DNA of 891 nucleotides from assembly GCF_003334305.1 (NCBI RefSeq), contig NZ_QOWS01000066.1, one strand, 5' to 3'. Both the position numbers and the translations under genes were made by a program. Positions 11-58 of this stretch are shown piece by piece. The notes beneath the pieces were generated by a model. The model was not told the origin of the DNA and did not search any database. It saw only the letters and a program-made list of their open reading frames with translations. How positions within the stretch are numbered: the first letter of the stretch is position 1; the number at the start of each line of letters is the position of its first letter. Origin of the DNA: Escherichia coli. GTDB lineage: Bacteria; Pseudomonadota; Gammaproteobacteria; Enterobacterales; Enterobacteriaceae.

Positions 11-58
11 CCCTCCAGTGCAGAGAAAATCGGCCAGTTTTCTCTGCCTGCAGTCCGC

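Follow-up and report, generated by a model that had tools for sequence, protein, structure and literature searches.

A covarying, guide-free 5' stem-loop of the IS621 bridge RNA, next to its target-binding loop

We identified an 891-nucleotide stretch of Escherichia coli DNA (the window) as the left end of IS621, and the perfect hairpin at positions 20-47 as the core helix of the 5' stem-loop already described for the bridge RNA (bRNA) of this element. Base pairing in this stem, and not its sequence, is under selection. We regard it as highly probable that the helix belongs to an accessory, guide-free 5' stem-loop which aids the affinity between recombinase and bridge RNA and, modestly, recombination. 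The feature is already known: publications of 2024 cover the element, the position of the stem-loop, its structural conservation and the effect of its deletion, and the proposal of a regulatory role followed in 2026. Our additions are minor, namely that the eleventh pair of the helix is a wobble only in IS621, that the loop is conserved within clades, and that the adjacency of the stem-loop to the target-binding loop is conserved.

The left end of IS621 and its bridge RNA

The whole window is 100% identical to loci annotated as "IS110-like element IS621 family transposase", and more than 1600 E. coli genomes have a 100% match to annotated IS621. The window was found in 2244 of 5426 complete E. 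coli genomes, at 13,077 places, with a median of 5 per genome and a maximum of 28. The plus-strand reading frame at 194-891 comprises the first 232 codons of the recombinase gene and runs off the window; its 232 amino acids are 100% identical to the 326-residue IS621 transposase bearing PF01548 and PF02371, and RefSeq labels it an IS621 family transposase. The non-coding left end lies directly upstream of this recombinase with its DEDD RuvC-like (PF01548) and Tnp (PF02371) domains, which is the arrangement of the IS110 family. The initial annotation had assigned the DNA to an IS110-family element, and the complete identity of both window and protein narrows that assignment to IS621.

Positions in the bridge RNA are window positions minus 16, a rule that we checked against the residues named by Hiraizumi et al. 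(PMC11208158): A1 falls at 17, U33 at 49, the flipped A43 at 59, the syn G48 at 64 and U142-U143-C144 at 158-160. The left target guide A50-U58 is then window 66-74 (AUCGGGCCU) and the right target guide G77-G80 is 93-96 (GUAG). The hairpin at 20-47 corresponds to bRNA nucleotides 4-31, the core of the 5' stem-loop A1-U33. With A1 at window position 17, this numbering also bears out the earlier placement of the hairpin at the 5' end of the RNA.

In multi-copy genomes, the copies of orthologues diverge immediately upstream of CT-TGTAT, which makes window position 1 the left boundary of the element. The CT at 1-2 (plus strand) is the core dinucleotide at which recombination crosses over (PMC11208158), and the 11 enterobacterial orthologues all have CTTGTAT. 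Judged by its distance from bRNA nucleotide 1 at position 17, TATTAT at 5-10 (plus strand) is a candidate -10 hexamer; TAT(T/G)AT is kept in the enterobacterial alignment A2 described below. The bridge RNA would be transcribed from the plus strand, starting at window position 17, from a promoter formed on circularisation; this promoter would be completed only in the circular form, with its -35 box in the right end of the element, outside the window. A promoter consensus scan of the window found no complete promoter, as expected when the -35 box is absent.

The bridge RNA itself occupies 177 nucleotides at 17-193 of the plus strand, as judged from 100% identity to annotated copies and from agreement with the published numbering (PMC11208158). 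Small RNA sequencing has shown continuous coverage of about 177 nucleotides, and the affinity between IS621 bridge RNA and recombinase was measured at a KD of 2.1 nM (PMC11208160). Window 17-193 folded with a minimum free energy of -64.5 kcal/mol (z = -3.6). An RNAalifold consensus of the 11 orthologues contained the 5' stem-loop and two stem-loops with large internal loops, in all 47 pairs, 14 of them with compensatory changes. The two larger modules, which agree in the consensus fold and in the coordinates of PMC11208158, are the target-binding loop at 50-114 (bRNA 34-98), whose basal stem 50-58/106-114 is a perfect 9-bp inverted repeat, and the donor-binding loop at 126-193 (bRNA 110-177), both on the plus strand. 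The right donor guide reads CAAG (178-181), the reverse complement of CTTG at the terminus of the element (1-4), as in PMC11208158; the match spans 4 nucleotides only.

A covariance-model scan of the whole window against Rfam 15 gave no match at E ≤ 1, and bridge RNAs seem to be without a curated family in this release despite thousands of E. coli copies. With position 193 as the last of the bridge RNA and the recombinase ATG at 194, any ribosome-binding sequence (AAGGTTGG, 179-186) falls within the 3' strand of the donor-binding-loop stem, and translation of the recombinase on longer transcripts could be limited by RNA folding.

Structure, covariation and position of the 5' stem-loop

A repeat finder returned GCAGAGAAAA at 20-29 and TTTTCTCTGC at 38-47 as a 10-nucleotide inverted repeat with 100% complementarity and 8 nucleotides between the arms, in accordance with the perfect 10-bp hairpin described initially. 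Our own scan of the 891-nucleotide window for other perfect hairpins of at least 7 bp with loops of 3-12 nucleotides found none. When the window was shuffled 5000 times with its dinucleotides preserved, 0.72% of the shuffled sequences had a perfect stem of at least 10 bp with a loop of 3-12 nucleotides, and for shuffles of the 193-nucleotide non-coding leader the figure was 0.08%; a stem of this length is improbable by chance, as had been supposed. The RNA fold of window 17-50 had an energy of -15.2 kcal/mol, whereas its shuffles averaged -5.7 (z = -5.0), and none of 200 shuffles was as good.

The minimum-free-energy fold closes a U30·G37 wobble, making the helix 11 bp long and the loop 6 nucleotides (CGGCCA, 31-36) and not the 8 counted originally. 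The 5' arm of the helix is then 20-30 and the 3' arm 37-47, all on the plus strand. The fold also adds the outer pairs A17-U49 and G18-C48, with U19 bulged. Pair probabilities were 0.75 for A17-U49, 0.84 for G18-C48 and 0.98 for the core helix, which is A/U-rich, with G-C at 5 of its 11 pairs. The complete stem-loop is therefore 17-49 on the plus strand, the same segment (A1-U33) that is missing from the deletion mutant of PMC11208158.

For comparison, 19 recombinase homologues were aligned and 80 loci were fetched from contigs representing one genome per species; the orthologue analysis covered about 58 non-redundant loci, at 40-84% protein identity. When the IS621 leader was used as an nhmmer query, the enterobacterial relatives aligned over their full length and distant leaders only from position ~45-56 on. 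Since the distant leaders can be aligned only from the target-binding loop onward, the sequence of the hairpin itself is not conserved.

The pairing, in contrast to the sequence, is retained. In alignment A2, which consists of 11 enterobacterial leaders, 95.9% of the cells of the 11-bp helix were paired, against 32-49% when the 3' partners were slid by 1-3 columns. Double-sided changes were present in 5 of the 11 pairs: 20-47 is U-A, G-C or A-U; 25-42 is A-U, G-C or G·U; 26-41 is A-U or U-A; 27-40 is G-C or A-U; and 29-38 is A-U or G-C. None of 500 shuffles matched the observed covariation score. Pair 30-37 is C-G in 10 of the 11 sequences and U·G in IS621 only, and for this reason we count the helix as 11 bp. 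Alignment A4 holds 23 sequences from a beta/gamma-proteobacterial clade, for which RNAalifold independently predicted a 7-bp hairpin at the equivalent place. All 7 of its pairs had compensatory changes (33 compensatory cells), 99.4% of cells were paired, as against 24-61% in slid controls, and again 0 of 500 shuffles reached the score. Conservation and covariation of the stem, which the initial annotation had named as a check on its reading, are evident in both alignments.

The same trend was visible beyond these two clades. Among 47 non-redundant leaders, the 38 nucleotides just upstream of the target-binding-loop stem had a median folding energy of -15.2 kcal/mol (z = -2.2), compared with -7.7 kcal/mol (z = +0.2) in control windows of the same length from the recombinase reading frame (Mann-Whitney p = 3e-18). 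About 90% of the orthologues have a hairpin immediately 5' of the stem of the target-binding loop. A profile search added 11 distant loci, 9 of which had enough upstream sequence to fold, and in most of these 9 the stretch from the CTTGTAT terminus to the target-binding loop holds one or two hairpins. Two covarying clades without sequence homology between them in this region agree with the published description of the 5' stem-loop as structurally conserved with diverse sequences (PMC11208158).

Some orthologues depart from the common structure. At columns 25/42 of A2, where other orthologues pair as G-C, A-U or G·U, the Klebsiella and Phytobacter copies (L004, L005, L008, L009 and L012) have A·C; this mismatch lies mid-helix and breaks the stem into a pair of shorter helices. 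Paludibacterium purpuratum (L037) and an Eremiobacterota MAG (L072) have about 15-22 nucleotides from the -10-like hexamer to the target-binding loop and no 5' hairpin, and two other loci (L036 and L063) have only a weak A/T-rich hairpin. The orthologues without a hairpin look like natural losses, in line with the absence reported for ISPpu10.

The IS621 helix ends at 49 and the target-binding-loop stem begins at 50, with equivalent adjacency in the orthologues. No nucleotide is left unpaired between U49, which pairs with A17, and G50, which pairs with C114, and this gapless junction would be compatible with coaxial stacking of the two helices. In IS621 and in the Klebsiella, Phytobacter and Dokdonella elements, the hairpin starts about 6-8 nucleotides past the -10-like hexamer, at the predicted start of the RNA. 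In the clade with a GGCA loop (L040/L041, L038/L039 and L071), the element starts with CT followed by TGTATTAT, and the conserved hairpin lies about 35-45 nucleotides after the predicted start, these offsets being counted from predicted start sites and not from mapped ones. Judged on predicted starts, it is the placement next to the target-binding loop that is conserved and not a 5'-terminal position, a minor new point.

The extra 35-45 nucleotides or so in L040 (approximately 1390-1490), L041, L038/L039, L071 and L067 usually hold a second small hairpin, and some bridge RNAs may have two 5' hairpins. The idea that the stem-loop helps the target-binding loop to fold found no support in silico: folded without the stem-loop, the target-binding loop was unchanged, its pair probability being 0.807 in both cases.

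Possible functions of the stem-loop

The stem-loop in the window is identical in sequence to that described for IS621 by Durrant et al. (2024, PMC11208160) and Hiraizumi et al. (2024, PMC11208158), with nothing different. A1-U33 was not visible in the 2.5 Å cryo-EM structure of the synaptic complex. Its deletion lowered recombinase binding, as measured by microscale thermophoresis, and slightly lowered recombination in E. coli; in the authors' view the stem-loop makes no specific contact and possibly makes non-specific backbone contacts (PMC11208158). The natural 5' stem-loop of IS622 (positions 1-34), an orthologue element tested in human cells with split bridge RNAs, has the same position and the same modest positive effect, slightly raising activity (bioRxiv 10.1101/2025.05.14.653916). 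A 2026 preprint describes the IS621 stem-loop as a repressive cis-regulatory brake and reports that the bridge RNA of ISPpu10, also of the IS110 family and with target- and donor-binding loops, has no 5' stem-loop (bioRxiv 10.64898/2026.03.19.712850). The initial annotation had read the hairpin as a structural anchor or protein-binding handle for the recombinase, or as a 5' stabiliser. The first of these survives in part, in that deletion lowers binding and recombination; a handle in the sense of a specific contact does not agree with a segment that is invisible in the synaptic complex and, according to its authors, makes no specific contact (PMC11208158). A repressive, terminator-like role had not been considered.

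In the explanation that we favour, the helix would be an independently folding accessory domain, kept immediately 5' of the target-binding loop's basal stem. It would extend the target-binding-loop stem, probably stacking on it, and would offer the recombinase additional non-specific RNA backbone to hold. Stem extension and backbone contact together would raise the affinity between recombinase and bridge RNA and, modestly, the frequency of recombination. A probable secondary effect in IS621 would be to cap the 5' end against 5'-end-dependent decay, and a possible one would be to damp expression of the downstream recombinase. We infer the coaxial stacking, the backbone contact and the protection from RNases. 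Several observations count against the affinity role. The small effect of the deletion fits poorly with the strong conservation of the structure, which suggests that plasmid assays miss a natural role. The hairpin is missing in some orthologues (L037 and L072, and ISPpu10 according to the preprint). The proposed brake is a regulatory role rather than one in assembly. Finally, a purely non-specific helix does not predict a loop that is more conserved than its arms.

Hairpins at the very 5' end of an RNA, such as that in the 5' UTR of the ompA mRNA, lengthen RNA half-life. By analogy, the main role of the IS621 stem-loop might be to stabilise the 5' end: with no single-stranded tail, entry of pyrophosphohydrolase and RNase E would be blocked and the half-life extended. 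IS621 resembles the ompA type in having a stable helix at the very 5' end, its first two nucleotides being predicted to pair, and orthologues with a recognisable CTTGTAT terminus often have the hairpin 6-8 nucleotides after the -10 hexamer, at the predicted start. A higher signal from an upstream reporter cistron with the stem-loop in place is also compatible with a stabilising hairpin (10.64898/2026.03.19.712850). The loss of affinity on deletion was, however, measured with purified components, where RNases are not involved (PMC11208158), and in the GGCA-loop clade (L040/L041 and L038/L039) the conserved hairpin is not 5'-terminal and yet adjoins the target-binding loop. Since the hairpin is internal in that clade, 5' capping is not the whole of its conserved role. 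For IS621, whose 5' nucleotides are predicted to pair, protection of the 5' end is plausible, but as the main role we think it a tentative and not very likely reading. Doubtful, in our judgement, is the proposal that the stem-loop is chiefly a cis-regulatory brake, an early hairpin acting like a terminator or pause site to lower downstream RNA and recombinase and so keep the element quiet. Placed between two reporter cistrons, the IS621 stem-loop decreased the downstream signal and increased the upstream one, and its deletion from the native leader increased sfGFP (10.64898/2026.03.19.712850). A stable hairpin in nascent RNA and a terminator-like reporter signature are what it shares with intrinsic (Rho-independent) terminators; it differs from them in having an A/U-rich stem and no U tract. 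The bases after the stem are CTGCAGTCC, a consensus terminator scan of the window made no call, and the window has no G+C-rich hairpin joined to a T run. Those orthologue hairpins that we inspected are followed by GATAGAG, GTTTGGG and the like, with no T run. Termination at this point would cost the RNA both of its guide loops, whereas small RNA coverage continues for about 177 nucleotides, and deletion lowers rather than raises recombination (PMC11208158). The evidence for the brake comes from a single preprint with an artificial reporter.

The inverted repeat could instead act at the DNA level, by forming a cruciform or by serving as a site for protein binding close to the left end. In its favour, the DNA palindrome is perfect and lies 20-47 bp from the boundary of the element, and the only non-pairs in A2, A·C, correspond to G·T when the other strand is read. 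Nevertheless a 22-bp donor is enough when the RNA is supplied in trans, which makes a role at the DNA level unlikely; the region is transcribed, and deletion from the RNA has a phenotype in vitro (PMC11208158). Alignments A2 and A4 together contain 11 G·U cells, tolerated in plus-strand RNA only, against 6 A·C cells, and 5 of those 6 come from the closely similar Klebsiella and Phytobacter sequences; the strand comparison would weakly favour plus-strand RNA. Taken with these points, action as DNA seems to us highly improbable. To a functionless chance palindrome we give practically no credence: such a stem does appear in 0.7% of shuffled windows, but covariation in two clades, at 5 of 11 pairs in one and 7 of 7 in the other, refutes the chance reading, and the hairpin's presence in about 90% of orthologues and the published deletion phenotype (PMC11208158) speak against it as well.

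Three published explanations compete, an aid to affinity, a 5' cap and an expression brake. For the engineering of bridge recombinases, the covariation implies that the stem can be changed freely if pairing is retained. The natural helix has 11 bp with two further outer pairs and adjoins the stem of the target-binding loop, and within clades its loop is more constrained than its stem.

The loop sequence

Another minor new point is that, within clades, conservation is higher in the loop than in the stem. The enterobacterial loop CGGCCA is invariant at 6 of 6 columns, as compared with 11 of 22 arm columns. In A4, about 21 of the 23 members have a GGCA loop on a stem of unrelated sequence, and mean identity was 0.96 for the loop against 0.77 for the arms. 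The pattern GGC..A is common to the CGGCCA and GGCA loops. The loop might be a sequence-specific recognition element for the recombinase, another RNA or a host factor, contacted at a stage that the synaptic-complex structures miss, such as the first loading of the bridge RNA or the control of expression. We consider this improbable; if it were true, it would explain why the helix is strictly retained in nature while its effect in plasmid assays is small.

Our searches for a partner of the conserved loop found none, and three candidates were rejected. CGGC (31-34), or GGCA in the A4 clade, is complementary to (U)GCC(G) at 60-64, which would allow a pseudoknot with the target-binding loop. However, U60, G61 and C62 are already paired to A105, C104 and G103 in the target-binding-loop stem; in addition, L071 retains GGCA though the partner is altered, and both partners are otherwise near-invariant. 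The segment ATCGGCCAG (29-37) resembles ATCGGGCCT in the left target guide (66-74), as a decoy or partner of the guide might, but the guide varies among orthologues while the loop is constant, and no covariation between loop and left target guide was found among the orthologues. A kissing-loop dimer of two bridge RNAs through the palindrome GGCC was set aside as a conserved mechanism, since the GGCA tetraloop of the A4 clade lacks self-complementarity. The published guides occupy window 66-74, 93-96, 139-146 and 173-181, in the target- and donor-binding loops (PMC11208158), and the initial statement that the hairpin contains no guide-like sequence stands.

Two further sequence resemblances were noticed. 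The segment ATCGGCCAGTTTTC (29-42) has 79% identity to ATGGACCGGTTTTC (147-160), a segment in the stem-loop of the donor-binding loop; the latter segment includes the UUC contacting the recombinase in the published structure. The likeness of the 5' stem-loop to this segment and to the left target guide may be due to chance or to an old duplication. In the DNA flanking the elements, the left flanks of L004/L005 (1420-1445), L001/L002 and L009/L012/L013 share REP-like sequence, for example GCCTTATCCGGG followed by CT and GCCTTACCCGG followed by CC, which is consistent with elements inserting into repetitive extragenic palindromes and with a match between the left target guide and the flank.
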